Shown here: positions 7,660 to 60,000 of the stretch, piece after piece
Numbering within the stretch: position 1 is the first letter of the stretch
Layout of the letters: each line of letters starts with the position of its first letter
DNA from: Schmidtea nova
Taxonomy: Eukaryota
Length of the DNA: 64,000 nt
Assembly (NCBI GenBank): GCA_044892505.1
Contig: CM097883.1
Span: forward strand, 275,094,001-275,158,000
Direction: 5' to 3'
Made by a program: the position numbers and the translations under genes
Notes under the pieces: generated by a model
What the model saw: the letters and a program-made list of their open reading frames with translations, nothing else
What the model was told of the DNA's origin: nothing
Database searches by the model: none

Positions 7660-7704
<45 letters not shown>

Positions 7705-8054
7705 TGTTGGGCCCGCCAAATCACCTAAAAACACAATAAAACGAACAAAATCATGAAACAATAAAGAAATGATAAAAATAAAAATAGCAAGAAAAACAAA
7801 TTAAAAATAACAATAAAACGACAAATAATAATTGAGAAATTTTCAGTAAAAGGAAATTTTGAAAATAAACCGGTAAACAACCGCAAAAGGGGGCCTGAAA
7901 TAAGAAAAGTAGAATTAAATAAAATAATAGTACAAATAATTAATTAATTACTTAGAAAATCAGGACCACCCAGCGAGAAACCGGAAAAGGAAACAAAATA
8001 ATGTTTAGATTAGATTAAAATAATAAAAATACTTTGAAGGACGGCCTGATCCTG

Positions 8055-8089
8055 ATTGGTCAATCCAACCAGACGGATCAGTATAAATA
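8055..8089 (+). promoter_or_regulatory. LTR core promoter: inverted CCAAT box plus TATA box
   Basis: ATTGG at 8055 and TATAAATA at 8082; the same pair with the same 27-bp spacing occurs in the diverged solo LTR (54458, 54485). Confidence 0.65.
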
Positions 8090-9092
8090 CCGATCCAAAA
8101 ATCACAACAACAGACTTGAGACGTTTTTACTTTTCACTTACAATCAAGACTAAACTTTGATTTAAGTAACATTTCATTTAACGAAGCGAGAATTTTTTGA
8201 AAAAACAGAATTCAAGTACGGAACGTAATTTTTATTGTTATTTTTTAATGTACCCATGATTTTTATTTTAATTAAAAGTTTATATGTAAACGTCATTTCA
8301 TTTTTTCATTGATTATTTTTAATGCATATAGCTATACTTCCTATGCTGCTCACGCGGCGAGGGAGTCCGAGTCGTCGTCGTGGGGCCTCAGGGTCTCACA
8401 TGGCGGTTCAACCTTTTTATTATTTAATTTAGATGTGAAGTTTTATCTAGAAAATTTGATTGAATTTTTAGTCTAATACAGACCATTTGCAAATTATTTA
8501 ATTTTGGGTTGCACAACGGACGAAGGTCGAGGGCCAAATATGTAGATTGCGGAGGGCGGATGGATAAGGAGGGACACCCCATGGTAGGGCATGCTCAGTC
8601 TTTAAATTTTTGGTAAATTGAATCGAAAGGGAACCTCCCGCATGGAAAACAGTGAGCAACAACTAAAATAAATTTGAATAATTTCGTTGGAATGAGAAAA
8701 TCCAACGTAGTCCAAAGTCCGATTTCATTCGGAATCAGCATTTCGCCTACGAAATTTTAACATCGATAAATTCCGATCGCGATGGAATGCGTCGGAAAAT
8801 CCAAATTAAATTAGTTACTAAAAATAGGCCGATCGTCGTATATGACGCGGTTTCCCAAGTTATTCTCCGATCGCTGTATATAGCGCGGAAATCTTGATTA
8901 AATTCGATAATTCCTGAATGCTGTATATAGCACAGGACTAATTATGAACTCTTTATTCCGACCGTGGTAGATCACGGCGGAGAGAAATAAAATTAATCTT
9001 ATTTTTTAACTGTTGTGATTATATGCAACATAATTAAATTATCAACGAATTTCCCCCTTAACTCATATTTATATCCAATAAATGTAATATAG

Positions 9093-9572
9093 ATGTCGAC
9101 AGCTGAACTTATACATCAATTGACGCAACTACGGAATATGGAGCAAGGGAATCTGCGAAATGGAAATATCTCGCAGCTCAAGGATCTACCAGCATCGATA
9201 TTGCGGACCCTCAACTGCCAAATGTATAAGTGGCGACAGGGGTTTGGCCGAAAATGCCCGTTCTCGATATGGACAGGAGGGCACGACCAAATACTCTATC
9301 GAGGAGGACCGAACTGGCCGATTTCTCAAAGGCCGTACTCAAACAAATTTGGCCGACTTGTCGTACTGATCAAGGACACCGATGGACGGACAAGCCGTGT
9401 AATTTATTGGGGGCATATCCCTCGTCGGGAACTATGCCAACTAGGCCTACACGAATTCCTGCCACGAAAACCGTTCGGCAAGGAGTGCCAGAAAGGACAA
9501 TCCTCATTCTCTTGGGCTCGTCTCCGTCAGAAACCGATTAACAGCGAATTGCATAGCCTGTTTCGGAGATAA
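9093..9572 (+). CDS. LTR-encoded ORF1, 159 aa, unknown function
   Basis: ATG directly after TAG acceptor-like site; identical copy in 3' LTR; positional counterpart in solo LTR at 55618. Confidence 0.55.
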   Translation: MSTAELIHQLTQLRNMEQGNLRNGNISQLKDLPASILRTLNCQMYKWRQGFGRKCPFSIWTGGHDQILYRGGPNWPISQRPYSNKFGRLVVLIKDTDGRTSRVIYWGHIPRRELCQLGLHEFLPRKPFGKECQKGQSSFSWARLRQKPINSELHSLFRR

Positions 9573-9755
9573 GAACTGATTGTCAAATCTTTCAAATTGT
9601 GATTAAATATTAATATTCAGTAGTGTTTTTGTTTTGTTGTTTTGAGTTTTGGTATTGTGTTTTTATAATTCATATTCGTAACCAAATAACCCTATAATCA
9701 GTTTCATTTTTCACATCATTTAATCATAGAGTAAATATCCTAAATAAATTATAGA

Positions 9756-10352
9756 ATGAACCCAGATTTGATGCAGAAAGAATTGGAAAAGATGTGGCGG
9801 ATTCGGAGAGCCCAGGACAAGGAATTGGGTCTCCTCAAGGCACAATTGATCAAAGCAGAGGCACAGATTGCATATTTGCGCAAAAGCTGGTTTGCTCCGG
9901 CCCGTATGAAGGAGCAAATCAGTAAAACCGAGCGCGCCCAACAGACTGCAGCCGATTACCAAATGGAATGGGAGGCTACAAAGATAGAACTCCGAAAATG
10001 CCTCCATTCCGTAACTGCCTCATACATCGAGAAGGAACTCAGAGAGCAAATCCGTCCGATTACGTACCAAGCTTGGACGGCAGAAAAGAAGACAGTAAAC
10101 TCCATTGGAACGGATGTCACCGATTTAATTGAAAGTCGGAATGAGACAGCTCCTCCAGCCAATTCAACCACTTCATCGGCGACTGCGCACCAGAAACGCA
10201 AGCGCATTGGGCAGAAACGGCGGAGACAGAGAAAATTATTTGCCCAGCAATTACAAATCCAAGTCGATGGTCTACATCAGATGACTGAGGAAGCATTATT
10301 GACGGAGATTTTTCCTCCGGCGGGAGTTTTTACCGAACTCATTAAAAATTAA
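9756..10352 (+). CDS. LTR-encoded ORF2, 198 aa, coiled coil plus basic NLS-like C-terminal region
   Basis: Protein-level homologue in solo LTR (56445-57008): WFAPARMK/WFNPERVK, IEKELREQIRPITYQAW/ITEQLRPVIRASTFNRW, KRKRIGQKRRRQR/RRNRLGAKKRRER. Confidence 0.8.
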   Translation: MNPDLMQKELEKMWRIRRAQDKELGLLKAQLIKAEAQIAYLRKSWFAPARMKEQISKTERAQQTAADYQMEWEATKIELRKCLHSVTASYIEKELREQIRPITYQAWTAEKKTVNSIGTDVTDLIESRNETAPPANSTTSSATAHQKRKRIGQKRRRQRKLFAQQLQIQVDGLHQMTEEALLTEIFPPAGVFTELIKN

Positions 10353-10826
10353 ATAAATTGTTGCATTGGCTTAAGAATCTCATCGTTCATTTAAATTGAT
10401 TTAATTAACTTTACCAATGATTAAATAAAGATAGAACAAAAGTATAAATTCAGTTTACAAAATATCGAATAGAGATAATTAAATAATTAAGCGAGCATTC
10501 GTTGAAATACTTCTCGCAGACTGAGCAATGATAAAAATAAATTTTCTGAAAGATTAACGCGGGATACATAAGTAGATGATTAAAGCATAAGTCCTTCTAA
10601 CGGCAGCAATGAACCCGTAAACATAAATGGGGAGTAGTACTAGCGATAGTGCTCACCTGCCCATCATTGTTTAACCACCCTGCGCATCACCAACTTGATT
10701 ATATAGGGAAATAATCAAGGGCGCTGGAGTGTAGAATTGCAATTTTATGCATGATCATGGATGAGGGATCCCTAGTCATTGTTAGAACATTTTTCATCTA
10801 ACCCCTCCATGAACCCAGCATAAATT

Positions 10827-10844
10827 TGGGGGCTCAGCCGGGAT
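10827..10844 (+). other. Primer-binding site, tRNA-Pro type
   Basis: TGGGGGCTCAGCCGGGAT, 6 nt after the LTR; 16/18 identical to the canonical tRNA-Pro PBS TGGGGGCTCGTCCGGGAT. Confidence 0.85.
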
Positions 10845-11148: not shown

Positions 11149-11610
11149 ATGGAGGAAAAACTGAAAGAAATCGAAGAATTCCTCAACACAGAAAGCGAAA
11201 CATTAGAAACGATTGGCAAGAAAATAAACCGATTTAGAGAAATTGAATTTCAAGAACCCACAACACAGACTGAGGAAACAGATGAATTAATAAAGATAAC
11301 AGAAAGAATAAGTAAAATCGACATAGAGACCCGCTACAAATGGTACAGAACACGATTAGAAAATGCAGAATTAAATATTAAGTGCAGGCAAATAGAACAA
11401 CAGTTAACCTCAACATACAATCGATGGAGGGCGCAAGGGGTAGAAGCAGCGAAAAAATACCGACAGTGCTATATATGTGGGGATAGCGAGATACAAATTA
11501 TGTTTTTACCTTGCGGACATTTTCGTTTTTGTAAGATATGTGCCAGCAAGTGCGACCTATGTCCTATGTGCAACCTGATGATAGACGATAAAATTATTGT
11601 ATATTTATAA
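11149..11610 (+). CDS. Coiled coil plus C-terminal IAP-type RING finger protein (153 aa)
   Basis: CYICGDSEIQIMFLPCGHFRFCKICASKCDLCPMC followed by IIVYL*, the spacing and terminus of XIAP/cIAP RINGs; no BIR domain visible. Confidence 0.85.
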   Translation: MEEKLKEIEEFLNTESETLETIGKKINRFREIEFQEPTTQTEETDELIKITERISKIDIETRYKWYRTRLENAELNIKCRQIEQQLTSTYNRWRAQGVEAAKKYRQCYICGDSEIQIMFLPCGHFRFCKICASKCDLCPMCNLMIDDKIIVYL

Positions 11611-12085
11611 TAAATAAAATTTGAATGGAATTTTATTGGTTTATTAATGATGAAATCATGGGTACAATTGTCATATATAAATAATTTTTGAGCTACTGCA
11701 AAGTAGTCCGATAGGAATCCATTGGGAGGTACCGATTGATCAACTTATTCAGGGTGTATAGAAAGGGGCCCATCGCAAATGTTGGAAAGTTTTTGTGATG
11801 TGATTGATCACCACATCCTGCATTAATGGACCAACGCGATCTTTTTGTATATTTTGGTTGGGGAGAGAGATAGGGAAATCTTGATGGAGTAAAGCGCGCA
11901 TAAGAAAAATAAATAAAAAGTTGAAGCAGACTGATCAGGAATAGTTATGATAGAATAAAGAGATAAATGACAAATTTTGAAAGAATAAAAGGTGCATAGT
12001 CAGCTCGCATAGAAGTAGTTATAACTCAGCTGAGAAATTTTAATCGCTAGCGAAGTAGGGAAGTGTGATTAACCGGTTAAGTAAA

Positions 12086-12467
12086 GTTAGGAGATTTGTC
12101 CCTTGAAACAAAGGGTTAGGAGATTTGTCCCTTGAAACAAAGGGTTAGGAGATTTGTCCCTTGAAACAAAGGGTTAGGAGATTTGTCCCTTGAAACAAAG
12201 GGTTAGGAGATTTGTCCCTTGAAACAAAGGGTTATGAGATTTGTCCCTTGAAACAAAGGGTTAGGAGATTTGTCCCTTGAAACAAAGGGTTAGGAGATTT
12301 GTCCCTTGAAACAAAGGGTTATGAGATTTGTCCCTTGAAACAAAGGGTTAGGAGATTTGTCCCTTGAAACAAAGGGTTATGAGATTTGTCCCTTGAAACA
12401 AAGGGTTATGAGATTTGTCCCTTGAAACAAAGGGTTATTAGCGGTTTGTCCCTTGAAAAAAAGGGTT
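12086..12467 (+). repeat. Tandem array, 29-bp unit, about 13 copies
   Basis: Unit GTTAGGAGATTTGTCCCTTGAAACAAAGG with a GTTATGAG variant; no spacers. Confidence 0.95.
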
Positions 12468-12509
12468 GAGGCCAATGAGCCTTATTGAATGACCTAGCTA
12501 GGCGTTATG

Positions 12510-12795
12510 GAGAGATTAAACTGAGGCCAATAGAGCCATTTGAGAGATTAAATTGAGGCCAATAGAGCCATTTGAGAGATTAAATTGAGGCCAATAGAGC
12601 CATTTGAGAGATTAAATTGAGGCCAATAGAGCCATTTGAGAGATTAAATTGAGGCCAATAGAGCCATTTGAGAGATTAAAATTGAGGCCAATAGAGCCAT
12701 TTGAGAGATTAAATTGAGGCCAATAGAGCCAGGTGAGATAGTAAAATGAGGCCAATAGAGCCATGTGAGATATAAAATTGAGGCCAGAAGAGCCA
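12510..12795 (+). repeat. Tandem array, 32-bp unit, about 9 copies, each with a CCAAT box except the last
   Basis: Unit TGAGGCCAATAGAGCCATTTGAGAGATTAAAT; CCAAT at 12527, 12559, 12591, 12623, 12655, 12688, 12720, 12752. Confidence 0.95.
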
Positions 12796-13408
12796 TAGTG
12801 AATTATAGAGATATCCGGATAAATAGTAACAGGGGGAATATAGACCCATAGTATAATCGTCGACGAGATTTAGAGTAGTGCGCACCAGTAGTTAAGAGAA
12901 TGCGAGTAAAGCTGATTATGCAACCTTAAGTAAAGCATGCAAGGAGAATAGTAAAAATTTGGGCTGACCGGAGCAACCGGCAGAATGAGTAGAACGATTG
13001 TTAGCAGGGAATAATGAATAGAAATGATAAAATAATGATAAACGAGTCAGGAAGACTCAGGGAATTAGAGCGCTCGAGCGACCAATAAATTGGGAAACTG
13101 TGGGAAAAGTAATCGATTTGATAAAACATAGATAATTATTACGACGTAAATAGATAATTGTGACCAGTCTATAGATAATTTAAATAGACTAAAAATAAAG
13201 GGGAATCTGGGAATTGGGAAATAATGAAAACCCAGTAATAAGTAATCCCGAAAGAAAGGGAATAAAAGCGCGACGATAACAATAATGTATCGTTGAGGAC
13301 CTTTGTATTTTAGATATACAAATCAATCAAATCAATCAATCAAGCAAGAAGAATCAGAAAAACGATAAGAGATAGAACAGGAAAATTGAGTATACAAAAG
13401 TAATCCCC

Positions 13409-30488: not shown

Positions 30489-30845
30489 ATGACCGAACAG
30501 GACGAAACAACTGAAATAACTATGGCTATGAGATGGAAGGCACAATGTGATTTATTAGTACGAACAGTCAACTCATTACAGAACCAATTAGCGGAAAGAC
30601 AAATGTTATTATCAGAAAGTTATAACAATTGTTTCGAACAATTACACAGAATAGAGGAACAACAAAGAGCGATAACTGAACTCACCAGAGAAAATCAAAC
30701 GATAAGCAACACCAATCAAAGACAAGCAATAGAAATAAACCATTTAACACGAGGAGAAAGAGAAGGATCCGAAGAAGGATGGATGAGTTGGGTAATAAAT
30801 AGATTAAACAACGAAGCGGAACCAGATTCAACGAATGAGCCATAG
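30489..30845 (+). CDS. Accessory ORF, 118-aa coiled-coil protein
   Basis: Intact ORF with the element's A-rich codon usage, heptad pattern, TAG-AAA-ATG start context. Confidence 0.7.
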   Translation: MTEQDETTEITMAMRWKAQCDLLVRTVNSLQNQLAERQMLLSESYNNCFEQLHRIEEQQRAITELTRENQTISNTNQRQAIEINHLTRGEREGSEEGWMSWVINRLNNEAEPDSTNEP

Positions 30846-30937
30846 ATAAATAAAGCGGAAAACTGTAAATATGTAAAAATAAAAACAAGAAAAACCAAAA
30901 ATAAATGACAAGTCGAATGTATATATTATTGTAGAAA

Positions 30938-32314
30938 ATGGACAGAGAAGAACGAATAATCGAAATTTTGAGACTAGAAAACAGAAAATGGAGCAAGAGA
31001 CTCACATGCGGAAAATGTAACAATTTATTACGAGAACCCAGACAAACGATATGTGGATGTAGAATATGTACAAAATGTATACAAGAATTAGATGTAACAG
31101 GAATAACAACATGCCCAGCATGTAAAGAAGGAAGAATAGTGTTGAACGAAACCAGAACGGACAAAGCAACCCAGAGAGAAATTATGAGCACCATAACGGA
31201 GTGCGTAAATACACCTTGTACATGGCAAGGACAAATAAGCAATCTAGAGAACCATATGGAAAAATGCGAGGAAAAGAGAGCCGAATGCGAGAAATGCCAA
31301 CAGACAATAACTCTAAAGAAGAGAGAACAACACAAGGAAGAATGTAAAGAAGAAGAAATCGCATGCGAGTATTGTGAAACTCGAGAAACAAGGAGAAAAA
31401 TCGAAGAGGAACACTTGAATATAACAGAAGAGAAAGTATGCAGACAATATGTAAGTAAATGTCCAAACAATTGCGAAATAACCGAAGAAGTAAAGTTACA
31501 TGAACATTGGAAAGTATGTACCGAAAGACCAAGAGAATGTCCATATAACAAGCAGGGATGCAAAGAAAAGCGGACGCGGCAATCAATGAAACAACACCTA
31601 GAAGAAGCAGCACTAACGCATGTGGAAATGACAAACGAAACGACAAAAGAAACGGAACAGACAATCCAGAAATTAGAAAAAGAAGTAGAATCACATAAGA
31701 TAATGATGAGTTTACTACTAGAAACAAGAGAGCAGTTTGAACTAACTCGCGAAAGAATGGAAAAGAAAATAATAGCCATAGAAGAATTAGGAAAAGGAAT
31801 GAAAATACAATATAATCAATTAATACGAGAAATTGACGAAAGAAGGGACTTACCAATCGCACCTTACCTATGGAAAGTAACAGATTTCAGAGACAAACTA
31901 GCAGAAGCCAGAAATATGACGAAAACAGCAGTAATAAGCCCACCATTTTATTTATGGAAAAACGGGGTTAAAATAAGATTGAAAGTATACCCAAATGGAG
32001 ACGGAAGAGGACAAGGAACACACGTGTCAATATTCTTCTCACTATGTAAAGGAGAATACGATGACCTAATAGAATGGCCCTTGAAAATAGGAGTCATTAT
32101 AAGAATCAAAAGTATGGGAAAACCGGTAGAAAAGTTCTTTGAAACAGACAAACATTCGAGTACGAGCGAAAAACCAACGACAGAATGCGGACTAGCAGCA
32201 GGAGAACCAATGTTTATAAGGAAAGAAAACCTATGGGAGCAACTATATGCAGACACGCTATACATAGAGATGGAGAGGCATGAGAAAACAGACAGAAAAG
32301 GATGGTTGGCGTAA
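30938..32314 (+). CDS. Full-length TRAF-family protein (RING, TRAF zinc fingers, coiled coil, MATH/TRAF-C), 458 aa
   Basis: CGKCNNLLREPRQTICGCRICTKC...CPAC; C-x-C zinc fingers; LWKVTDF...SPPFY...YPNGDGRGQGTHVSIFFSLCKGEYDDLIEWP. Confidence 0.95.
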   Translation: MDREERIIEILRLENRKWSKRLTCGKCNNLLREPRQTICGCRICTKCIQELDVTGITTCPACKEGRIVLNETRTDKATQREIMSTITECVNTPCTWQGQISNLENHMEKCEEKRAECEKCQQTITLKKREQHKEECKEEEIACEYCETRETRRKIEEEHLNITEEKVCRQYVSKCPNNCEITEEVKLHEHWKVCTERPRECPYNKQGCKEKRTRQSMKQHLEEAALTHVEMTNETTKETEQTIQKLEKEVESHKIMMSLLLETREQFELTRERMEKKIIAIEELGKGMKIQYNQLIREIDERRDLPIAPYLWKVTDFRDKLAEARNMTKTAVISPPFYLWKNGVKIRLKVYPNGDGRGQGTHVSIFFSLCKGEYDDLIEWPLKIGVIIRIKSMGKPVEKFFETDKHSSTSEKPTTECGLAAGEPMFIRKENLWEQLYADTLYIEMERHEKTDRKGWLA

Positions 32315-32428
32315 TGAAGGAAGTAACCATGTAAATAAAATGTATAGAAACAATATAAATTAACGAATAATCAAAAACAATAAAAATAAAAAAATGATTA
32401 AATATTCTTTTTATCTGTAATTATAGAA

Positions 32429-33490
32429 ATGGGAAATATAGAAGTAACCTTACAAGAAGTAACAGTACATCAAGACGAAATGATCAGAAATCACATGGAG
32501 CGGATTGGGATATGGATTCATGCCTATTATCGAAAACAGGAGGAATTGGAAAGACAAACCCAAGCACTAAGAGAAGCCGAGAAAACGAATCAAAGAAGTC
32601 GAGAAAAAATAGAAGAAGTCTACAAACTACTAAGACAACAAAACGAATACTACAAAGAGATGATGAAAGAGCGACGAGAGGAGAGGGATAGACAACAAAT
32701 AAAAACAGACCATAAGATTCAGTCAATCACAGAACAAGCCAGATATTGGAAGAAAGAGGCAAAAGACTCTTATAAGGAAGCAAGGGAGATAATAGAACGA
32801 ACAGCGTACAGCGATGATTGGAAACTGTTTAAAGAGATCGATGAATTAAAAGAGGAATTAGGGCAAAAGATCAGTCAAGAAGCATCAAATAAAGTATGGA
32901 GTAAGAAAAGACAACAATTTATCCGAGAACAAGCCAAGAAAATAAAAGAATTAACTTATCAAGTACAAAGAATGGGAGAAGACTTAGCCAATCAAGAACA
33001 GTTAAAAGGTATGCTGACAGGAATGTGGAATCACAAGGAAGAAAACATGAAAAGAGACATAAATGGATATCAAGGAGTGATCACCCAGAAGAAAATAGAA
33101 TTAAAAAGAACTAAAGAAAGAATGGAAGAAACGAGGCAGAGTTATGAAGAGAACATAACAAATTTGGCAAAAGAAAACGAAGAACTGAGAAAGAAGTTGG
33201 CAGAAAAACCAACACCAATAAAAGAAACAAGTATCACAGCAGCAGTGACCGAAATGATGGAGAAGGAAGAGAGAGAGAAAAAATTGGCAGAACTAGAAAA
33301 ACAAATTGAAACCCTAACAGAACAGGCGAACTATCTGGAATACTTATTAGATGAAGAGATCCAGATATCCCACACATACCGAGAAGAAGTCGAAATGTGG
33401 AGGAGCACGGTAATATGGATGCCACTCCCCATAAATCAGGTGGAACCTCAAGACGAAGGTTTTCACGAACCCAACGAAACCCTTGTATAA
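32429..33490 (+). CDS. Accessory ORF, 353-aa coiled-coil protein
   Basis: Intact E/K/R/Q-rich heptad ORF; pyrimidine tract plus TAG directly before ATG. Confidence 0.75.
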   Translation: MGNIEVTLQEVTVHQDEMIRNHMERIGIWIHAYYRKQEELERQTQALREAEKTNQRSREKIEEVYKLLRQQNEYYKEMMKERREERDRQQIKTDHKIQSITEQARYWKKEAKDSYKEAREIIERTAYSDDWKLFKEIDELKEELGQKISQEASNKVWSKKRQQFIREQAKKIKELTYQVQRMGEDLANQEQLKGMLTGMWNHKEENMKRDINGYQGVITQKKIELKRTKERMEETRQSYEENITNLAKENEELRKKLAEKPTPIKETSITAAVTEMMEKEEREKKLAELEKQIETLTEQANYLEYLLDEEIQISHTYREEVEMWRSTVIWMPLPINQVEPQDEGFHEPNETLV

Positions 33491-33565
33491 ATGTGCGGAA
33501 ACCAAGTGTAAATAAATTATGTAAAATAAAAAGTGTCAAGCTGTATTGACCGATGTATAAAAGAA

Positions 33566-34135
33566 ATGAGAAAGCTCGCAATAGCAACACTCCTATGGTT
33601 AACAACCATTACCCTACAGAGAGAAGATCTACAACTAACCGAAACCCAATTACGAGTTCTACCCGACAAAACCTATCAGAAAGTAGACAGCCTAATCGAA
33701 GAAGTAATTAAAGAAATCAACGAATTCCGACAGAAATTCCCCCACAATCAAGATCGTCAAATCCAACAAATCTTCGATAATCAACAACTGAAACTAGAAG
33801 AAACCCGAAAAATCCTGAAAGAAGGTAGAGAACCCATAAAAAGCCTATCCCAAGCTGAAATAGAATATCAAGAGAAATGGATCATAGCAATCATCATAAT
33901 CCTAGCAGTCAGCACAACTATCATCGCAATCACAATCCTGCTTGCCTCATATAGAATAAAAATCCTAAAACAAAAGCAGAAAATCTACAACCAAACCTCC
34001 AGACGAGATAACCGAGCTCAAAGACGAATAAGGAGCCATCTCAACCACATTCAAACCCACTACGAGCTACAAATGATCAACGAGAGGACCCGAACTCAAC
34101 CCCAAGCGAGCCAGACGATCGAACAAATTGTATAA
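33566..34135 (+). CDS. Accessory ORF, small type I membrane protein (signal, helical ectodomain, TM, basic tail)
   Basis: ATG at 33566; MRKLAIATLLWLTTITL; TM WIIAIIIILAVSTTIIAITILLASY. Confidence 0.72.
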   Translation: MRKLAIATLLWLTTITLQREDLQLTETQLRVLPDKTYQKVDSLIEEVIKEINEFRQKFPHNQDRQIQQIFDNQQLKLEETRKILKEGREPIKSLSQAEIEYQEKWIIAIIIILAVSTTIIAITILLASYRIKILKQKQKIYNQTSRRDNRAQRRIRSHLNHIQTHYELQMINERTRTQPQASQTIEQIV

Positions 34136-34339: not shown

Positions 34340-35727
34340 TGTTGGGCCCGCCAAATCACCTAAAAACACAATAAAACGAACAAAATCATGAAACAATAAA
34401 GAAATGATAAAAATAAAAATAGCAAGAAAAACAAATTAAAAATAACAATAAAACGACAAATAATAATTGAGAAATTTTCAGTAAAAGGAAATTTTGAAAA
34501 TAAACCGGTAAACAACCGCAAAAGGGGGCCTGAAATAAGAAAAGTAGAATTAAATAAAATAATAGTACAAATAATTAATTAATTACTTAGAAAATCAGGA
34601 CCACCCAGCGAGAAACCGGAAAAGGAAACAAAATAATGTTTAGATTAGATTAAAATAATAAAAATACTTTGAAGGACGGCCTGATCCTGATTGGTCAATC
34701 CAACCAGACGGATCAGTATAAATACCGATCCAAAAATCACAACAACAGACTTGAGACGTTTTTACTTTTCACTTACAATCAAGACTAAACTTTGATTTAA
34801 GTAACATTTCATTTAACGAAGCGAGAATTTTTTGAAAAAACAGAATTCAAGTACGGAACGTAATTTTTATTGTTATTTTTTAATGTACCCATGATTTTTA
34901 TTTTAATTAAAAGTTTATATGTAAACGTCATTTCATTTTTTCATTGATTATTTTTAATGCATATAGCTATACTTCCTATGCTGCTCACGCGGCGAGGGAG
35001 TCCGAGTCGTCGTCGTGGGGCCTCAGGGTCTCACATGGCGGTTCAACCTTTTTATTATTTAATTTAGATGTGAAGTTTTATCTAGAAAATTTGATTGAAT
35101 TTTTAGTCTAATACAGACCATTTGCAAATTATTTAATTTTGGGTTGCACAACGGACGAAGGTCGAGGGCCAAATATGTAGATTGCGGAGGGCGGATGGAT
35201 AAGGAGGGACACCCCATGGTAGGGCATGCTCAGTCTTTAAATTTTTGGTAAATTGAATCGAAAGGGAACCTCCCGCATGGAAAACAGTGAGCAACAACTA
35301 AAATAAATTTGAATAATTTCGTTGGAATGAGAAAATCCAACGTAGTCCAAAGTCCGATTTCATTCGGAATCAGCATTTCGCCTACGAAATTTTAACATCG
35401 ATAAATTCCGATCGCGATGGAATGCGTCGGAAAATCCAAATTAAATTAGTTACTAAAAATAGGCCGATCGTCGTATATGACGCGGTTTCCCAAGTTATTC
35501 TCCGATCGCTGTATATAGCGCGGAAATCTTGATTAAATTCGATAATTCCTGAATGCTGTATATAGCACAGGACTAATTATGAACTCTTTATTCCGACCGT
35601 GGTAGATCACGGCGGAGAGAAATAAAATTAATCTTATTTTTTAACTGTTGTGATTATATGCAACATAATTAAATTATCAACGAATTTCCCCCTTAACTCA
35701 TATTTATATCCAATAAATGTAATATAG

Positions 35728-36207
35728 ATGTCGACAGCTGAACTTATACATCAATTGACGCAACTACGGAATATGGAGCAAGGGAATCTGCGAAATGGAA
35801 ATATCTCGCAGCTCAAGGATCTACCAGCATCGATATTGCGGACCCTCAACTGCCAAATGTATAAGTGGCGACAGGGGTTTGGCCGAAAATGCCCGTTCTC
35901 GATATGGACAGGAGGGCACGACCAAATACTCTATCGAGGAGGACCGAACTGGCCGATTTCTCAAAGGCCGTACTCAAACAAATTTGGCCGACTTGTCGTA
36001 CTGATCAAGGACACCGATGGACGGACAAGCCGTGTAATTTATTGGGGGCATATCCCTCGTCGGGAACTATGCCAACTAGGCCTACACGAATTCCTGCCAC
36101 GAAAACCGTTCGGCAAGGAGTGCCAGAAAGGACAATCCTCATTCTCTTGGGCTCGTCTCCGTCAGAAACCGATTAACAGCGAATTGCATAGCCTGTTTCG
36201 GAGATAA
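35728..36207 (+). CDS. LTR-encoded ORF1, 3' LTR copy
   Basis: Translation identical to 9093-9572. Confidence 0.55.
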   Translation: MSTAELIHQLTQLRNMEQGNLRNGNISQLKDLPASILRTLNCQMYKWRQGFGRKCPFSIWTGGHDQILYRGGPNWPISQRPYSNKFGRLVVLIKDTDGRTSRVIYWGHIPRRELCQLGLHEFLPRKPFGKECQKGQSSFSWARLRQKPINSELHSLFRR

Positions 36208-36390
36208 GAACTGATTGTCAAATCTTTCAAATTGTGATTAAATATTAATATTCAGTAGTGTTTTTGTTTTGTTGTTTTGAGTTTTGGTATTGTGTTTTTA
36301 TAATTCATATTCGTAACCAAATAACCCTATAATCAGTTTCATTTTTCACATCATTTAATCATAGAGTAAATATCCTAAATAAATTATAGA

Positions 36391-36987
36391 ATGAACCCAG
36401 ATTTGATGCAGAAAGAATTGGAAAAGATGTGGCGGATTCGGAGAGCCCAGGACAAGGAATTGGGTCTCCTCAAGGCACAATTGATCAAAGCAGAGGCACA
36501 GATTGCATATTTGCGCAAAAGCTGGTTTGCTCCGGCCCGTATGAAGGAGCAAATCAGTAAAACCGAGCGCGCCCAACAGACTGCAGCCGATTACCAAATG
36601 GAATGGGAGGCTACAAAGATAGAACTCCGAAAATGCCTCCATTCCGTAACTGCCTCATACATCGAGAAGGAACTCAGAGAGCAAATCCGTCCGATTACGT
36701 ACCAAGCTTGGACGGCAGAAAAGAAGACAGTAAACTCCATTGGAACGGATGTCACCGATTTAATTGAAAGTCGGAATGAGACAGCTCCTCCAGCCAATTC
36801 AACCACTTCATCGGCGACTGCGCACCAGAAACGCAAGCGCATTGGGCAGAAACGGCGGAGACAGAGAAAATTATTTGCCCAGCAATTACAAATCCAAGTC
36901 GATGGTCTACATCAGATGACTGAGGAAGCATTATTGACGGAGATTTTTCCTCCGGCGGGAGTTTTTACCGAACTCATTAAAAATTAA
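36391..36987 (+). CDS. LTR-encoded ORF2, 3' LTR copy
   Basis: Translation identical to 9756-10352. Confidence 0.8.
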   Translation: MNPDLMQKELEKMWRIRRAQDKELGLLKAQLIKAEAQIAYLRKSWFAPARMKEQISKTERAQQTAADYQMEWEATKIELRKCLHSVTASYIEKELREQIRPITYQAWTAEKKTVNSIGTDVTDLIESRNETAPPANSTTSSATAHQKRKRIGQKRRRQRKLFAQQLQIQVDGLHQMTEEALLTEIFPPAGVFTELIKN

Positions 36988-37454
36988 ATAAATTGTTGCA
37001 TTGGCTTAAGAATCTCATCGTTCATTTAAATTGATTTAATTAACTTTACCAATGATTAAATAAAGATAGAACAAAAGTATAAATTCAGTTTACAAAATAT
37101 CGAATAGAGATAATTAAATAATTAAGCGAGCATTCGTTGAAATACTTCTCGCAGACTGAGCAATGATAAAAATAAATTTTCTGAAAGATTAACGCGGGAT
37201 ACATAAGTAGATGATTAAAGCATAAGTCCTTCTAACGGCAGCAATGAACCCGTAAACATAAATGGGGAGTAGTACTAGCGATAGTGCTCACCTGCCCATC
37301 ATTGTTTAACCACCCTGCGCATCACCAACTTGATTATATAGGGAAATAATCAAGGGCGCTGGAGTGTAGAATTGCAATTTTATGCATGATCATGGATGAG
37401 GGATCCCTAGTCATTGTTAGAACATTTTTCATCTAACCCCTCCATGAACCCAGC

Positions 37455-37486
<32 letters not shown>

Positions 37487-52935: not shown

Positions 52936-55617
52936 TGGTAGGATCAACAGGGAAAAGTTTGAAACTAACACAAAAATAAACCTTTCAGAGAGATTAAGTT
53001 GGTAATTAATTATTTATTTATCTGACTCCAAATTATGTATCGTTATATTATTGAAATAGGTTACGCTCACTATCAAATGATAAAATCAAAAGAAACTTCT
53101 TTTCTCTTTAAATACTTTTATTAAATAACAATGTGTACAAATTTTACTACAGATATAACTAAGAACATGATCAACTGATCAATCCCTCAATGATCCGCAA
53201 GCTATACGATGCTTTCTAACGGCAGGTCACCGTTGAATATATATACTTATTGAACTCACCATGTAAATAAATTATTATAAAACCTAATTAATTTAGTAAA
53301 ATGAATTAGTAAGAATAAATTTATGGATCTTGAATTTTTTTAAATAGTCATGCTAGTCATATTTGGTCAAAGAACTTACCTTTTCCTGGCAAAGAAGATT
53401 ATAATTGCGGAGTTTAGCAAATTGAAAATATTAATGGATTTTATAACATTTTTATAATAATACGGCTACATTACAGTTAATGAAAAATTGATAATTGTTT
53501 TTTCTCTCGTAAATTCGTAATTATGTAAATAATTGCTGAAATAACAAAACTCAAATCATATTCAACTTACAATTTACTTTATTGTATTAAAAAATTCCTG
53601 TCTATCTGTTGAGGATACCTAAATAATAAATTAAATATTGGCACAAATAAATAAAATTATTTCGGGAAAATGAACACGGTGAATGATTTATTGTTTAGAA
53701 ATATGAAAAAAGATGTTTGAAGAACAAAACTTGAAGGATGAGAAGTTGGCAGCAAAACAAAGGAAATTGAAAAAATAACCAAGAACGGTCATTCCTAATT
53801 AAAAAGTACAAAAAGCAAAAAAGAATTCCAAAATCGAAAAACAAAGAGAAAATTAGAAAATTAGCCTGTCAGAGATATCGGAATTATAGGAGAAAAGTCG
53901 GAACAACAAAAAGGAAAAGCAGTCCATATCTCGACAGCTGTCACAGATAAGGCAATAGCTGTTGAAGAAGGCCAAAAGCAAAGTTGAAAAACTAATTTAT
54001 TTTTCAAGTACCACAAAATTTACCGCGCTATAAAAGCAAAAGTCAGCGCAGCTGAATTAGAGAAAAAAATTCGAGTGAGACTACTGTTGGGCCAGCCAAA
54101 TCGAGCAGCATCTGAAAATAATGTACAATCAATAAAATAAATTAAATACAGAATAACAACAAAATAAATTACCAACACCAAAGCGTAACAAAATAGGCGG
54201 CAACATCTAAAAGAAATAAAATATTAATCAAAACAACAAAAATCTTCAAAACTCACTCATGCGAAGCAGAAAAAAATTGAATATGACAGCGCGTGGGCGG
54301 ATGTCACCGAAGAGCTAAAACAAAATCAAATAAAAATTAAATCATACAAAAATAAACTTACCGCATGATTAACCAAATAAATCATTGAGTTGAGTTAGGC
54401 ACCAAAAAGCCGGCAATACAAAATAATGAAGCAAACATACACACATACTCGATGCTGATTGGCTAACCAACAACACCGGTTGAGTATAAATACTGAAGTC
54501 AAATCAGTATTTGACAATGTCATTTTTACTGAAGTTAAATCAGTGCAACAGTCACTCTTACGGAAGACATTGTAAAACCGAATTGGAAATAAAAGGTAAT
54601 TTGGTGTTATGTTATTGATGTGTCTAAACCCTCATAATCATAATTGTTTATAATCATATTAAAATCAATAAGGTTTCCGGAGGCCTAACAGCCTGACGGA
54701 TTCTTGGGGCCTCTCAGCGCAACACAATCTTTCGGTTGTGAGGTGCTGATGCGGCGGGACCATAAGTTTACTAAATACTTGATGGGGGAAAAGGGGGATG
54801 CACATAGGGTATCGAGTAAGACCTAATGAACATGAACTAAATCGAGGTAGAGACGGCCTGATATAAACGCTATACATCACGATGATAGGGTATCGAGTAC
54901 AAACTAGTAGTCGTAAACGAGCGCAAAGGGAAACCCGTTTTATAGGAAGGATATATATCGTGGCGAAGTCTAGACGAGGGATAGACGTGTAGTGAATAAT
55001 GTTAGGGTAGATGAATTAGGTGACGACGAGGGTAGGTATATGTCGACATTAGCGCGTACGAGTTCGGCATAGTGAACCTAGTATCAAGGGTTAAGGATAA
55101 TCGATAACCTCTGTCAGCTGTGTTTAGTCGCCAAGAGAGATGATAAATAAATCACAGGCATTGAGAACTGATAAAATGATGAACCCCAGTGAGTAAGGAC
55201 CACAGGAACTTACGAGAATTACCCGACATAGTGTGATCATTGCTGGTTAGATGAGGAAGTGATTGAGAACGACTGATGAGATTGAATGTAATAAATAGTA
55301 TTATCAATAAACAAAAACGGTTGTAGTTGGGTGGTTGAACCTGATTGATGAAAGTTAAGTATAATAGTGATATGATTAAAAAATGCAACAAATCGTGCGT
55401 AGCTGAATCGTTGAAATAAAAAGCGGAGTACACTAGCTTCAAGCTATCATCTAACACGACCCACGTTAAGTCACCAACTATGATCCGGCAAAAATACAGA
55501 ATGTACCACTCAGACCTACAAAATTTCATAAATAAGACGGGTGGGTCGACTAATATAAATAGGTCCGTTCTACCGTAGAATCCGTAGATAAAATCAACCA
55601 TTTTCTTTAGGAATACT

Positions 55618-56253
55618 ATGGTGAAACTGGAGAGTTACCAAAAGAAGTCGATGGTCGCGTGCCCTATAAAGCTAGAGAAGACCATCATTCGTAGGAAACG
55701 GCGCACCCGTTCCGTCCTCAGACCAAATGCGAACCCAAATATCAGAGGAGAGAACGAAGCACCCCGAAAAGTTGTCGAAGTATCACGTCGCCACCTACGA
55801 CGGTGGATGAGGGCCCATATGAGCTCAGCCGCTAGCACCCCAGCTTGCGCGTTTGGACTACAGTTGCGGTGGGAAGGAGATACCGATTGGGTACCCTCCT
55901 CGGATCGTATCAAGCCGGAAAATACCCGATGGTTTTATCAATTCCTAGATGAGTTAAAGCAACCCCGCTGGCTACTGAGTACCGGAATGATGTCCGGAAA
56001 AGAGCTACATCAACTCGGATACATGCTGCTAGACAGGCCTCGGTGTGGCGACACTGGGGAAGTCTTCGCCTACTCAAACGCGCCAGGAAGCGTGTCATTG
56101 GACCAACACCCCGAGCCCAAAGACCTTCGTCTCTGGGAGGTATTCATCTTTCGGGACAAGTTAAGTTGGAGCCCCGCCCCGGAGTTATACTATGAGAGCG
56201 GAATCCGTCGTGACGAGAACACGGCCGACCAGGAATTACGACCCTTCATCTAA
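55618..56253 (+). CDS. Solo-LTR ORF A, 211 aa, unknown; positional counterpart of LTR ORF1
   Basis: TTTTCTTTAG acceptor-like site just upstream of ATG; short shared motif GMMSGKELHQLG vs GHIPRRELCQLG. Confidence 0.55.
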   Translation: MVKLESYQKKSMVACPIKLEKTIIRRKRRTRSVLRPNANPNIRGENEAPRKVVEVSRRHLRRWMRAHMSSAASTPACAFGLQLRWEGDTDWVPSSDRIKPENTRWFYQFLDELKQPRWLLSTGMMSGKELHQLGYMLLDRPRCGDTGEVFAYSNAPGSVSLDQHPEPKDLRLWEVFIFRDKLSWSPAPELYYESGIRRDENTADQELRPFI

Positions 56254-56444
56254 ATCGCAAGGAAACCGACCCACCGAAGGAATATTTGATGTGTATTAAA
56301 AATAAATGTATTAATTTTTGGGTTTTGTTATGTCTTTGAATGTATGAAGCGATCTGAGAGTAAAACACCTGTTTGATAATAAAGATAGTGACTGGGAGAA
56401 CAGACAAACCATACATAACCCGATTAATGATACATTTTACAGAG

Positions 56445-57008
56445 ATGAGTGAACATCCAACTAGGAACTACAAACAAGAGGCAAAAGAGCATAAAGCACG
56501 ATCGCGAGTCCTAGAAAACCGCTTGCGGCAGCTAAACGAAGAGCACCAGCGAATTAAAGCCACGTGGTTCAACCCAGAGAGGGTTAAAACCATCCTGCAA
56601 GCCAGATACAGGGCGGAACGAACAATCGACGAGCAAGCTAGGGAGGTAGCAGCACTAAAGATGGAGCTGTCGAATTACTTGAGGGCATCAACCCAGGAGT
56701 TTATCACCGAGCAACTACGCCCAGTGATCAGGGCTAGCACCTTTAATCGGTGGGTGGACACAATATCGATGACAACAAGTACCCAAACGGAAATAGAAAC
56801 CATCCCAATCACAACTACCCCAACATCCCCAATAATTCTGGAAGGCTCGAAACGAACAAAGAGACGGAATCGCTTGGGAGCGAAAAAGCGTAGGGAGAGA
56901 CGCGCATATGCAGATCGCGTAGGAATAGAGGTAGACTTGCTCAGTGGTCTATCCGAGCAAGAACTACTAAATGTAATCCGACCCTCTGTATTGTTGAACT
57001 ACAAATAA
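56445..57008 (+). CDS. Solo-LTR ORF B, 187 aa, homologue of LTR ORF2
   Basis: Collinear similarity to 9756-10352; CATTTTACAG-AG-ATG start context. Confidence 0.8.
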   Translation: MSEHPTRNYKQEAKEHKARSRVLENRLRQLNEEHQRIKATWFNPERVKTILQARYRAERTIDEQAREVAALKMELSNYLRASTQEFITEQLRPVIRASTFNRWVDTISMTTSTQTEIETIPITTTPTSPIILEGSKRTKRRNRLGAKKRRERRAYADRVGIEVDLLSGLSEQELLNVIRPSVLLNYK

Positions 57009-60000
57009 ATGTATAAAATGAATGATTTGACTTGTCTTGTTTGTTTGTGGAATGTCTGAGGATCGAATGTAGATAAAGCCCGGATTCATGTTAAGGCTGC
57101 AGATATCTAAAAAGTAAATTACCCTAGGACAAAAGAAAAGAGCATAAGTGGGACCGAAAGAAATCCACAAACACCTTCTATCGGTAGTGGTGGACCCGTG
57201 AATAAACAAGGGAATAGTAGCCGAAAGGTTGCTCACCTGCCTTGTCATTTCACAACGTTGACACAGTACCAACATGATGAGTAGTTAGGGATACATCATG
57301 GGTGTCAGCGGGGGAAACGTTTTTATGTTGGCGAGATCACCCTAACGTATAAAATCATAAGGATCTCAGTTGTCAATCCAACCAACACACCAGCACTACA
57401 AATTTGTGCGAAAATATTTTATGACAGAAATTTATTGAAAAGCTTATCGAGAGGAACTTATTGAGCCGAAGTTCAGGTCAATGCATAGAAAGCAATTAGT
57501 TAGTTGCCCATTGTTAACACTAAATCAGTAGCTAGTGGTTGTTAGACGGATATATTATACAAGAGTGCTTATTCTTCAAATAAGTGTCGTAATAAGCACT
57601 GTATGATTGTTTAATATTATTGATTTATTGTACCAGTTGTGATATCAATAAAAATCACTGTTGTAATTGTTATTCTATTGATTAAGAAAGCACGCATTTG
57701 GAGTCAGAATTTTCATTGGTAACTTTGAAATTTCACTAACTGTACAATAACCCAACATATCTATGGTCCGATTGACTTCCAACTAGGAACTTCAGATCTA
57801 CCCTATAATTCAAATTTCTTTCTTTATGTTGGAATTACTATTAAAAGCATAAAAGTAAAATCCAACACACAATAAATAATTTGAAAATCAAAAAAAAATA
57901 TCAAAATAATTAAAAGTGCAAAAATTAATTAAAATCTATCAAAAATTAAAATTCATCGGGGGAAATTGGTATGGTTGAAAGCCAAATCAAAATACGAATC
58001 CAATAATAATAATAATTGAGTGAATGGTCCCAAAGAATGTTATATTAAAAAAATTAATCGCTCAATGGGAAGTCTGAGCCGATGGGAAACCCGAGAGGTG
58101 AAAAAACCCGGAGCGCAAGAAGACCCGAGAGTTCAAAGGCGGATAATTGTGCAAAACAAATAAAGATAAAACCCATCCGGGCCCTAGTAATGGATGTACA
58201 ATTTAATTTGTTATTGTCCCAATTAGGCTAAAGATTTCCAGATAATTATCTTCGTGATAATGATATAAAAGGAGAACGGAAAAGAAACGAGCCACCACGT
58301 TGTCGAAAAGAGTCAAGGTAAAATACTGAGTTGAGGAATTTTAAGGAATGTAAGAAGCGATTATAATAAACCTTTTTTTTCAATTAGACGTACCAGAAAA
58401 GGAAATTACCCTTTGGGTTATCTGCCTTAACGTTAATCAAATTAATAAATAAAAGAATGTGCAAATTATTGGAAAATTGTATCGATTTAAAATATCGTAA
58501 TAAGACAAATTGTAATTTGTTGTGACTTTCAAATTAAATTATTCTGAGTTACGTATTATTGATATAAATAAAAGGACACGATGAGTCAAAATTTAAACCC
58601 ATCTATTGTTTAAATAAAATAACCCAACACTTAACATTACAAAAATGGGTTAAATTCTACTAAATAATATTAAACATTGTTTAAATCCTGAATTAAGATT
58701 TAATTCATTCAAATAAAAAAATCAATTTCTAAACAAGTCATTTCTCCAACTTATATATTGCACAAAATTAAGTAATTAACATTTTTAACAGACTGGCAAG
58801 TCTAAATTCAGTATCTAAATTAAATGAACAATCAATTTTCAGTTTTTTAAATAAACAAAAATAATAAAAATCAAACTCAAATAAAAGTTTTTCAAATAAA
58901 ACCAAATTTCATTTGTTAAATTACTTGAAAATAATAATACAAATACAATTAATAAGGTCAACACAATTTCGAATTAAACAGCCTTTACATAATTAACTCA
59001 AAAGAAAATTTGATCCTAATTATGAAAATTCGAAAAACAATTTATATATAATATCACATAATTAGAAATTGTAAAAAAACAAATCACCAATTTTATTGCG
59101 TGTCATTAAAAAAAATCAAATATTTTGGAAAAACTCATTTATTAAATTTAAATCAGTGCATTGATTGCCGACTAATCGATTTTTCTAAATATTTAAAATA
59201 ACATTTTTTTCATTATTATTTTTTAATTAAATAATATAAACTACGTTTTTTAAATTTATGAGAGTTGGAATTTCAGTTAATTTCAAATCAGAATCACATC
59301 GAAATTTATTTTCCGTTGATTTCCATCTATTTTATAATAAACAAAACAAGAAAACGGTACACTAAATTTTACAAGAATTTACTCGTCTTTATAGCCAACT
59401 TCTACTAAAGCAAATACCAAATTACTGCATAATTCCATTCCTTTTTCAACGAAAGGTTCAGCTGGTTTTAATTTTTAATTAATAAATTATTAAAAGATAG
59501 ATATTAATAAATTGATAATAAATATCAATTAATAAATTTTAAAAAATCAATACCATCACGACAATCAGAACACCAGCTATCTCCGGTGGACTCTTCAGTT
59601 GAACCACAGAAAAATAATATCACTGAATTTTCTAGCGATTTTAACTCTTCAATTTTGGCTAGATATTTGTCATAATTTCCAATATACAATTGTTCACATG
59701 ACATTGCACAAATATTTTATTTGATTTACAGCTAATATAAATTGAAAATGGAATTAACAAATAAATAAATAAAATCAGTTAGAAGTATTTAAACAAATAA
59801 CTTATTTAACACATTTTTTCTGAATTATTTAATTGATAAAATTTTTCCTAAAGTCAATATTGTCAACTAATTGTGTATTTAATTTTATAAATTAAAATAA
59901 GAAATTTTACTTCATATTGATTAAATTGAAATGATTAAAATTTTTTTCTAATGCAAATGTTGTGCAAAACAAAAATAGGGTTTAAAAGTGTTGGATTATT

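Follow-up and report, generated by a model that had tools for sequence, protein, structure and literature searches.

Gypsy LTRs are regarded as non-coding sequence, and a solo LTR as an inert promoter. By contrast, the LTR of a giant element in the 64,000-nucleotide stretch of Schmidtea nova DNA analysed here (the window) holds two selected orphan genes, raising the questions of how such genes are maintained and expressed and of what their products might do. The features discussed below are collected in Table 1.

A coding LTR and the element around it

The initial annotation had claimed that ORF2, in the 5' LTR, aligns collinearly over most of its length with ORF B of a solo LTR of another family (family 2), and that the DNA is otherwise diverged. 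We found the collinear alignment to span about three quarters of ORF2 (residues 41-187; 43/147 identical, 29%; E 2e-16). Its score of 184 lies far above the maxima of 71 among 5000 full shuffles and 107 among 5000 shuffles of 14-aa blocks, and the motifs named at the outset (WF.P.R.K, RA, K.EL..L, I...LR..IR..T...W, KR.R.G.K.RR.R and I.VD.L....E..LL) were all found in it. The N-terminal 40 aa of ORF2 gave no local alignment with ORF B. The divergence of the DNA was borne out as well: the two LTRs could not be aligned except in the TATA region (47 nt, 79%) and over the first 18 nt, where alone likeness exceeded chance. The LTR 3' end common to most LTR types (71-100%) was not found in family 2 at that threshold. 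Family 2 occurs as full elements too, and ORF2 homologs occupy the equivalent LTR position in six LTR types.

Homology between ORF1 and ORF A is likely, judged from a profile comparison (E 1e-4, probability 57%), the BLASTP match between them not being significant; ORF1 is absent from one LTR type. Profiles of ORF2 and ORF1 matched no internal ORF in four elements. Between families, identity is lowest for the LTR genes (21-44%, versus 44-98% for internal genes). At one further locus a second, divergent ORF2-like match, some 2,750 nt away from the LTR end, may belong to a nested LTR of a different type.

The element carrying ORF2 has two LTRs that are 100% identical, and it is flanked by a target duplication, TAAT, at 7701-7704 and 37456-37459. 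Its architecture (length, long LTRs, glycoprotein position and cargo) points to a Burro-like giant Gypsy. The length looked for was about 30 kb or more with long LTRs; the element is slightly below 30 kb, with LTRs of 3.1 kb. A fusion glycoprotein (PF24664, E 1e-70, Pfam) lies in frame ahead of PR-RT-RH-INT, and TRAF/MATH, RING and ankyrin cargo were all detected by Pfam; BIR and BCL2-like domains were not detected in the window copy at E 0.01. The planarian Burro/GYPSM1 elements are described as about 30 kb long, with gag-env-pol in a single frame, a mononegavirus-like glycoprotein before the protease, and RING, TRAF/MATH and ankyrin cargo (PMC6431247, in part). Compared by description with that partial account, the window element is alike in size, gag-env-pol order and cargo, and differs in having TRAF as a separate downstream gene. 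Flatworm elements with gag-env-pol order are also reported elsewhere (PMC13524379, in part).

Gag-env-pol is a single 4,961-aa ORF in a family-2 copy and is split in the window copy. Since the gag/env-pol junction (18132-18247) is one open frame in 20/20 other family-1 copies, the split is a private break or an assembly error, and a programmed frameshift is ruled out.

Several further observations concern the element and its surroundings. Tandem arrays of 29-nt and 32-nt units lie at 11999-12830, past the RING gene and short of the gag acceptor. Ahead of its first ATG, gag has another 173 open codons in frame (13376-13894), which may reflect a non-AUG start or an effect of A-rich composition. 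After the ankyrin region, the polyprotein tail (26700-30362) contains repeated Cys/Trp-containing modules and hydrophobic stretches with no Pfam match. The env region (about 18940-20710) is 98% identical between families 1 and 2, with pS of 0.31, compared with 0.70-0.73 for RT, gag and TRAF, so that a recent swap of the env module between these families is likely. Labelled by eye, ORFs elsewhere in the window resemble a hAT-type transposase (42334-44862, minus strand), a galactosyltransferase (48107-49333, plus strand) and a Gypsy integrase remnant (50200-51064, plus strand).

Table 1. Features of the window and of the ORF2 protein (positions in the window unless given as residues)
Feature	Position	Strand	Remarks
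Element, 29.75 kb	7705-37455	+	Burro-like giant Gypsy (by architecture); ORF2 inside its LTR
5' LTR, 3,116 bp, termini TG..CA	7705..10820	+	from LTR comparison and target duplication
Inverted CCAAT box (8052) and TATA box (8082)	8052..8089	+	start predicted about 30 nt on
Predicted ATG-free leader exon and donor	8118..8230	+	GT 8225, alternative GT 8216; T-rich sequence after
Conserved double hairpin, predicted first intron	8336..8409	+	z -4.45; in gag-only elements too
LTR ORF1, 159 aa	9093..9572	+	orphan alpha/beta protein (low-confidence model); AG abuts ATG, ATTAAA at 9602
LTR ORF2, 198 aa	9756..10352	+	acceptor AG 9753-9754, AATAAA at 10352
Non-coding LTR 3' end	10560..10790	+	71-100% in most LTR types, ORF-less ones included
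Primer-binding-site-like sequence	10827..10844	+	6 nt after 5' LTR; 620 exact genome copies
RING-finger accessory gene	11149..11610	+	acceptor 3 nt before ATG, AATAAA at stop
Acceptor-like site	13300..13313	+	581 nt upstream of gag ATG, near start of 610-nt ATG-free stretch
gag	13895-18247	+	two frames with env-pol in this copy
env-PR-RT-RH-INT-ankyrin ORF	18132-30362	+	Pfam domains
Four 3' accessory genes	30489..34135	+	118 aa; TRAF-like, 458 aa; coiled coil, 353 aa; 189 aa
3' LTR	34340..37455	+	identical ORF1 at 35728-36207, identical ORF2 at 36391-36987
Family-2 solo LTR, 3,311 bp	54085..57395	+	target duplication CTAC, same termini as family 1
Solo LTR signals	54085..57395	+	TATA 54485, predicted donor 54596, hairpin island about 54670-54770
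ORF A, 211 aa	55618..56253	+	acceptor 7 nt before ATG, AATAAA about 50 nt past stop
ORF B, 187 aa, ORF2 homolog	56445..57008	+	acceptor 2 nt before ATG, AATAAA overlaps stop
ORF2 predicted dimeric coiled coil	residues 1-89		homodimer model; followed by helix with IRP.T...W
ORF2 disordered linker	residues 116-143		AlphaFold
ORF2 Arg/Lys-rich patch	residues 147-160		followed by acidic amphipathic tail

Selection on the replicating lineage and the state of solo LTRs

Protein searches of the genome returned at least 150 scored copies each for ORF2 and ORF B. A first set, with one LTR per element and copies picked by protein likeness, gave dN/dS values of 0.14 for ORF2 (57 copies), 0.07 for ORF B (61 copies), 0.19 for ORF1 and 0.21 for ORF A. 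Because picking by protein likeness biases dN/dS downwards, a second sample was anchored on primer sites and comprised 60 of the first 68 listed of the 620 exact sites, 8 being skipped as already in the set. Thirty-six of these 60 LTRs, belonging to six types, contained an ORF2 homolog, which in intact copies stops 380-610 nt short of the LTR end; one more held a fragment, and 23 gave no ORF2 match. By our reading, 29 of the 36 homologs are intact and 6 broken, and the last is a 144-aa type. dN/dS by LTR type was 0.074 (n=6), 0.134 (n=2), 0.109 (n=8), 0.15 (n=6) and 0.126 (n=8), calculated from ORFs of at least 170 aa, a filter that dropped shorter broken copies, missed one intact copy and took in two or three with altered ends. 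ORF1-type genes in this sample gave 0.11-0.20. Over both samples, values ran from 0.07 to 0.11 for ORF B, from 0.19 to 0.21 for ORF A and from 0.11 to 0.21 for ORF1. The 5' and 3' LTRs of single elements were too alike for dN/dS (6 N and 3 S in 21 pairs).

Values of 0.07-0.15 across genomic LTR copies, far below 1 and holding also for copies chosen regardless of ORF, uphold the earlier proposal of purifying selection on an LTR-encoded protein. ORF2 is a gene under purifying selection inside the LTR, and selection also acts on the second LTR gene (ORF1/ORF A). The low complexity of coiled coils and basic patches and the lack of a database homolog would suit a compositional accident in an ORF that is not a gene; this reading, to which we give practically no credence, is ruled out by dN/dS in both samples and by the shuffle tests, and is further opposed by the third-position bias and near absence of gaps within the LTR ORFs and by 13 invariant columns across the 26 proteins of the ORF2-family alignment.

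Variants shared by two or more copies had N/S ratios of 0.14-0.31, as opposed to 0.31-1.07 for private variants (Fisher p 0.04, 0.02, 9e-12 and 2e-9). As private variants are less constrained than shared ones, selection acts via replication cycles and relaxes after insertion, indicating that it acts on the replicating lineage and not on inserted copies.

This bears on the solo LTRs, every one of which the initial annotation had expected to be a self-contained expression cassette for the protein. The family-1 LTR end occurs 733 times in the genome, 114 times with a primer site, and about 500 of the ends are unpaired. From 20 early-listed family-1 ends without primer site or obvious partner, 12 were identified as solo by their target duplication. 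ORF2 was intact with its AG in 5 of these 12 unselected solo LTRs, 4 of which also had the exact TATA; ORF1 was kept in 7/12, and both genes in 3/12. The cassette itself stands as a prediction, with signals for promoter, leader, donor, acceptor and poly(A) addition all inside the LTR, but "every" does not, given the 5/12 with intact ORF2 and the much weaker constraint on private mutations. About 500 unpaired ends, with 5/12 intact, nevertheless suggest roughly 200 dispersed intact ORF2 copies which, if expressed, would be a hidden source of trans-acting element protein. Domestication of the gene by the host, with selection keeping it in solo LTRs, could draw on the same unpaired ends and on the N/S of private variants in solo copies (0.49-0.78, below 1). 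We consider it highly improbable and, as a general rule, disfavoured, because constraint on private variants is far weaker than that on shared ones (for the ratios above, Fisher p from 0.04 to 9e-12) and intact ORF2 has been lost in 7/12 unselected solo LTRs.

Some LTRs have neither gene. Both are absent from three family-2 LTRs of about 1.57 kb (92-93% identical in two comparisons), and in the two of these copies that were followed inward, gag-env-pol homology remains, with breaks. Three other ORF-less LTR types followed inward proved to be gag-only elements of 11-12.5 kb. As gene-less LTRs have also spread, the genes are not needed in cis, which fits trans-acting products. Strong selection on a freely shared product, however, needs some preference for the parent copy, for which we have no explanation and which counts against the model of ORF2 function proposed below. 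The gag-only elements have LTRs of 1.4-1.7 kb and share the primer site and the LTR 3' end; one type among them also has the family-1 hairpin. A separate LTR type, represented by 8/60 sampled LTRs and one interior read, has LTR ends 13.3 kb apart in that copy, which retains ORF2 and RING along with part of gag and every 3' accessory gene but is without env, protease, RT and integrase.

Predicted expression from one LTR promoter

CCAAT and TATA boxes were found at LTR nt 365-401 in 7/7 gene-bearing LTRs examined, representing six types. The TATA box is near-invariant in 40 family-1 copies, as are the promoter boxes within families generally. With the start inferred from TATA, U3 would be only about 410 nt long, and the position of the conserved TATA, about 1,000 and 1,670 nt upstream of the two LTR ORFs, argues for their placement in R/U5. 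The leaders predicted in seven LTRs, with donors chosen by eye, vary in length from 66 to 184 nt and contain 0 ATG where 13.1 were expected; each runs into a GT donor-like site with T-rich sequence behind it. The leader is free of ATG in 40/40 family-1 and 35/36 family-2 copies.

Acceptor-like and poly(A) signals recur along the element. A YAG lies within 3 nt of the ATG in 6/7 of its small genes (background 12%, p 2e-5), and the same 6/7 have A[AT]TAAA within 60 nt of the stop (background 40%). Three of the four 3' accessory genes are among those with such a YAG, each with AATAAA past the stop; the 189-aa gene lacks both signals in the window copy. Across six LTR types, a YAG precedes the first or second Met of the LTR ORFs by at most 15 nt in 11/11 cases (background 37%), cases that are homologs and not independent. 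The gag ATG follows 393-610 ATG-free nt in 9/9 elements (5-9 ATG expected). This stretch begins near a T-rich acceptor in 6/9, a pattern first noticed in the window and then tested in relatives; it was not found at the expected place in three family-2 gag regions.

The simplest reading of these signals is that a single promoter and leader serve alternative acceptors and poly(A) sites, with both LTR genes in R/U5. A promoter near LTR nt 380-400 would probably give an ATG-free leader with a donor, joined to alternative acceptors at ORF1, ORF2, RING, gag and three of the 3' genes, the majority of which have a poly(A) signal of their own. With both genes in R/U5, an intact LTR would hold promoter, leader, genes and ends. 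Contigs from four runs of undefined kind covered 30/30 bins, U3 and predicted introns included; they are DNA-like and silent on expression, and none of their 15 listed joints (three more being unlisted) fell at predicted splice sites. Short inverted repeats flank the TATA box (8040-8110) in several LTR types, with a folding z of only -2.1.

Alternatively, the LTR genes might share a polycistronic transcript, as in an operon, and be separated by spliced-leader trans-splicing. About 150 nt lie between the ORF1 poly(A) signal and the ORF2 acceptor downstream, within the 300 bp used as operon spacing in flatworms (PMC12582326, in part). Against this stand the conserved donor and ATG-free leader after TATA in all LTR types examined. 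In addition, the flatworm leader ends in AUG by the same account, yet acceptor-to-ATG distances fall in all three frames. We regard trans-splicing as quite unlikely; it concerns expression only and is compatible with any protein function.

Candidate functions of ORF2 and known systems

The initial annotation had described a coiled coil with a basic, NLS-like cluster and had inferred a Tat/Rev/Bel1-like role. AlphaFold modelling, among the checks suggested there, predicted an all-helix protein (pLDDT 78, pTM 0.33), and a homodimer model gave an in-register coiled coil over residues 1-89. The homodimer scored 0.57 against 0.06 for the best control, with contact agreement of at least 87% and pLDDT of at least 63 across runs. 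The mark used was reached by 21/30 microbial pairs and 0/23 single chains, and by 17/29 eukaryotic pairs and 0/30 single chains, but by only 1/7 of the eukaryotic pairs without an older solved relative, and the score of a coiled-coil dimer may reflect likeness to solved coiled coils. The basic patch, with 8-10 K/R in 14 residues, is present in 26/26 aligned proteins, so that both parts of the description hold, the first as a prediction. An acidic tail with a [TS]E.EL..[IF]-like motif is found in 25/26.

Searches beyond this genome brought up no relative or fold match. Single-sequence and alignment word searches, limited to lengths near the query, found no homologs, and an ORF2 profile had 0 matches among 1.84 billion representatives. 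In the ESM Atlas ORF2 matched unnamed clusters (best 0.86), and ORF1 was also searched there without finding a homolog. No Pfam domain reached its cut-off for the LTR ORFs, PDB sequences matched ORF2 only in designed coiled coils (E 0.04 or worse), and fold searches gave no match at E 0.001 for ORF2 or for ORF1 (model pLDDT 52).

Between the predicted donor and the LTR genes lies a conserved double hairpin, a candidate response or packaging element. A hairpin island occurs at or near LTR nt 590-770 in 6/8 LTRs scanned (z -2.5 or lower), is shifted in a seventh, and is also kept in ORF-less LTRs. Its sequence did not align between the main families in the searches made, and covariation is slight, with two-sided change in 5/29 pairs and in 2/26 for the double hairpin of the window.

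We tentatively favour, at somewhat below even confidence, a reading of ORF2 as a trans-acting, Rev/CERV-like regulator of unspliced genomic RNA, and rank it ahead of transcriptional and host-directed roles. The LTR promoter would produce a short leader spliced onto ORF2, and the resulting protein, a predicted nuclear dimer, would help unspliced genomic RNA to avoid splicing, early poly(A) addition and nuclear retention. If Gag and the accessory proteins come from spliced RNA, the 27-kb genomic RNA would need to escape processing at about seven acceptors and six poly(A) signals and then leave the nucleus. With the primer site downstream of the donor, splicing to internal genes would yield RNAs that no longer contain that site. 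That ORF2 supplies the escape in trans, its basic patch binding family-specific LTR RNA, is suggested by anatomy and analogy and is perhaps slightly less probable still. Placing the gene in the LTR would prevent recombination between families from parting the protein from its target, and intact solo LTRs would make ORF2 as bystanders. In favour of this model are the predicted dimer, the basic patch in 26/26 proteins, the hairpin island retained in ORF-less LTRs, the high divergence of the LTR genes between families, and the precedents of CERV and the foamy virus LTR described below. Set against it are the lack of a homolog, a fold match or a conserved export signal, the spread of family-2 LTRs that have neither gene, the choice of donors by eye, the acceptor pattern missing from three family-2 gag regions, the missing signals of the 189-aa gene and the slight hairpin covariation; the acidic tail and a weak bZIP match in the ORF B type would fit a transcription factor equally.

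A transcriptional activator or repressor of its own LTR (Tas/Tat/bZIP-like) would dimerise, bind DNA or nascent RNA through a basic helix and activate through the acidic tail. Besides the tail motif, a sub-threshold bZIP_1 match over the basic region of the ORF B type (E 0.075 and 1.3; 9.7 bits against a cut-off of 27.6) and the inverted repeats flanking the TATA box are in keeping with such a factor, as is the basic motif, low in complexity, which resembles the basic stretch of Tat. However, ORF2 and two other types lack the bZIP Asn, and the predicted dimer interface is N-terminal (1-89) and not placed after the basic region. There is no Cys-rich Tat domain, ORF2 containing a single Cys, and the predicted 5' leader is not conserved and has no stable hairpin (z -1.0 and -0.2). 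We consider this alternative unlikely. Membership in the two known classes is rejected: bZIP, defined by an N-x7-R/K basic region ahead of a leucine zipper, by the missing Asn, the restriction of the sub-threshold match to the ORF B type and the position of the interface, and lentiviral Tat by the single Cys, without a Cys-rich core, and the leader z of -1.0.

ORF2, together with ORF1, might instead target the host, counteracting piRNA or chromatin silencing or cell death as the RING/TRAF cargo may. The LTR genes diverge fastest between families, the element carries RING, TRAF and ankyrin cargo, and expression from any LTR suits a diffusible antagonist; Burro elements are expressed in a planarian and repressed there by SMEDWI-2, a piwi protein (PMC8532177, in part). 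On the other hand, no sign of positive selection was seen within families, a shared antagonist should decay faster than observed, and no host-like domain was found, leaving this role rather improbable.

Extending the RNA-regulator reading, we can picture an expression switch moved into the LTR. All proteins, Gag included, would come from spliced RNA, and an LTR-encoded Rev-like dimer would free the unspliced 27-kb genome; with gene and target in the same repeat, each family would have a lock and key of its own, with intact solo LTRs, in their hundreds, serving as dispersed helper genes for gag-only and gene-less parasites. As a whole, this picture is doubtful. If the genes are expressed, they would offer a direct way into two questions, namely how a 27-kb, intron-laden RNA avoids processing and what role the Burro accessory genes have. 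Mechanism aside, repeat annotation and LTR dating in this group should allow for coding constraint in LTRs.

The element type is known already, as is an ORF within an LTR (MMTV, in U3; PMC9412291, in part). Two features appear to be new: a pair of selected orphan genes within a Gypsy LTR, downstream of its own predicted promoter, and an element-wide leader-splicing signature. The literature searched held no account of an LTR-encoded Burro protein; these ORFs may be shown in Grohme 2018 and its supplements, in the Repbase entry or in Fig. 2A of PMC6431247, which lay outside that search. Section 7 of PMC6431247, as the part describing Burro/GYPSM1, mentions neither an LTR-encoded protein, nor selection on such a protein, nor a scheme of splicing, and the excerpt of PMC11410931 adds nothing on LTR ORFs.

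Among known regulators, Rev and Rem (Rem in PMC9412291 and Rev in PMC10309623, both in part) are likened to ORF2 by small size, an Arg-rich motif, predicted self-association and a candidate structured intron RNA. They differ in that ORF2 is without homology to them, has no conserved export-signal consensus and is encoded inside the LTR. Of the features common to Rev, Rem and CERV, the Arg-rich motif is present in 26/26 proteins, and donor and acceptor signals are present, but the export signal fails. Leucine-rich export signals fall into consensus classes, none of which follows the basic patch of ORF2 in family 1, F1b or F3; the other LTR types have unrelated matches, no class being conserved.

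CERV, from Cer1 of C. elegans, is an orphan nuclear protein made from a spliced mRNA and needed to export unspliced genomic RNA (PMC10309623, in part). By the same partial account, Cer1 is likewise a Gypsy-type element with a tRNA-Pro-like primer site (the primer-site-like sequence in the window begins like the Cer1 site, given as tRNA-Pro), and CERV has a predicted coiled coil and a basic signal. It differs in its 517 aa, in sharing exons with gag, in its internal position and in having a candidate export signal, a Cys loop and a G-like domain; ORF2, at 198 aa, lies wholly inside the LTR, and no homology between the two was seen.

The foamy virus LTR resembles that of the window in having a splice donor upstream of its poly(A) signal; there the major donor suppresses early poly(A) addition at the 5' end (PMC3694450, in part). 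Unlike the predicted LTR genes of the window, the transactivator of these viruses does not lie behind the LTR promoter. It is encoded between env and the 3' LTR and has an internal promoter.

HIV nef overlaps U3. The MMTV Sag/Naf ORF lies in U3, and a U3 promoter can drive Sag (PMC9412291, in part). As in the window, these are coding ORFs within an LTR and so are duplicated at both ends of the element. They lie, however, upstream of the main start, whereas the two ORFs of the window are predicted to lie downstream of it, in R/U5, each with an acceptor and a poly(A) signal, in a Gypsy element and not a vertebrate retrovirus.
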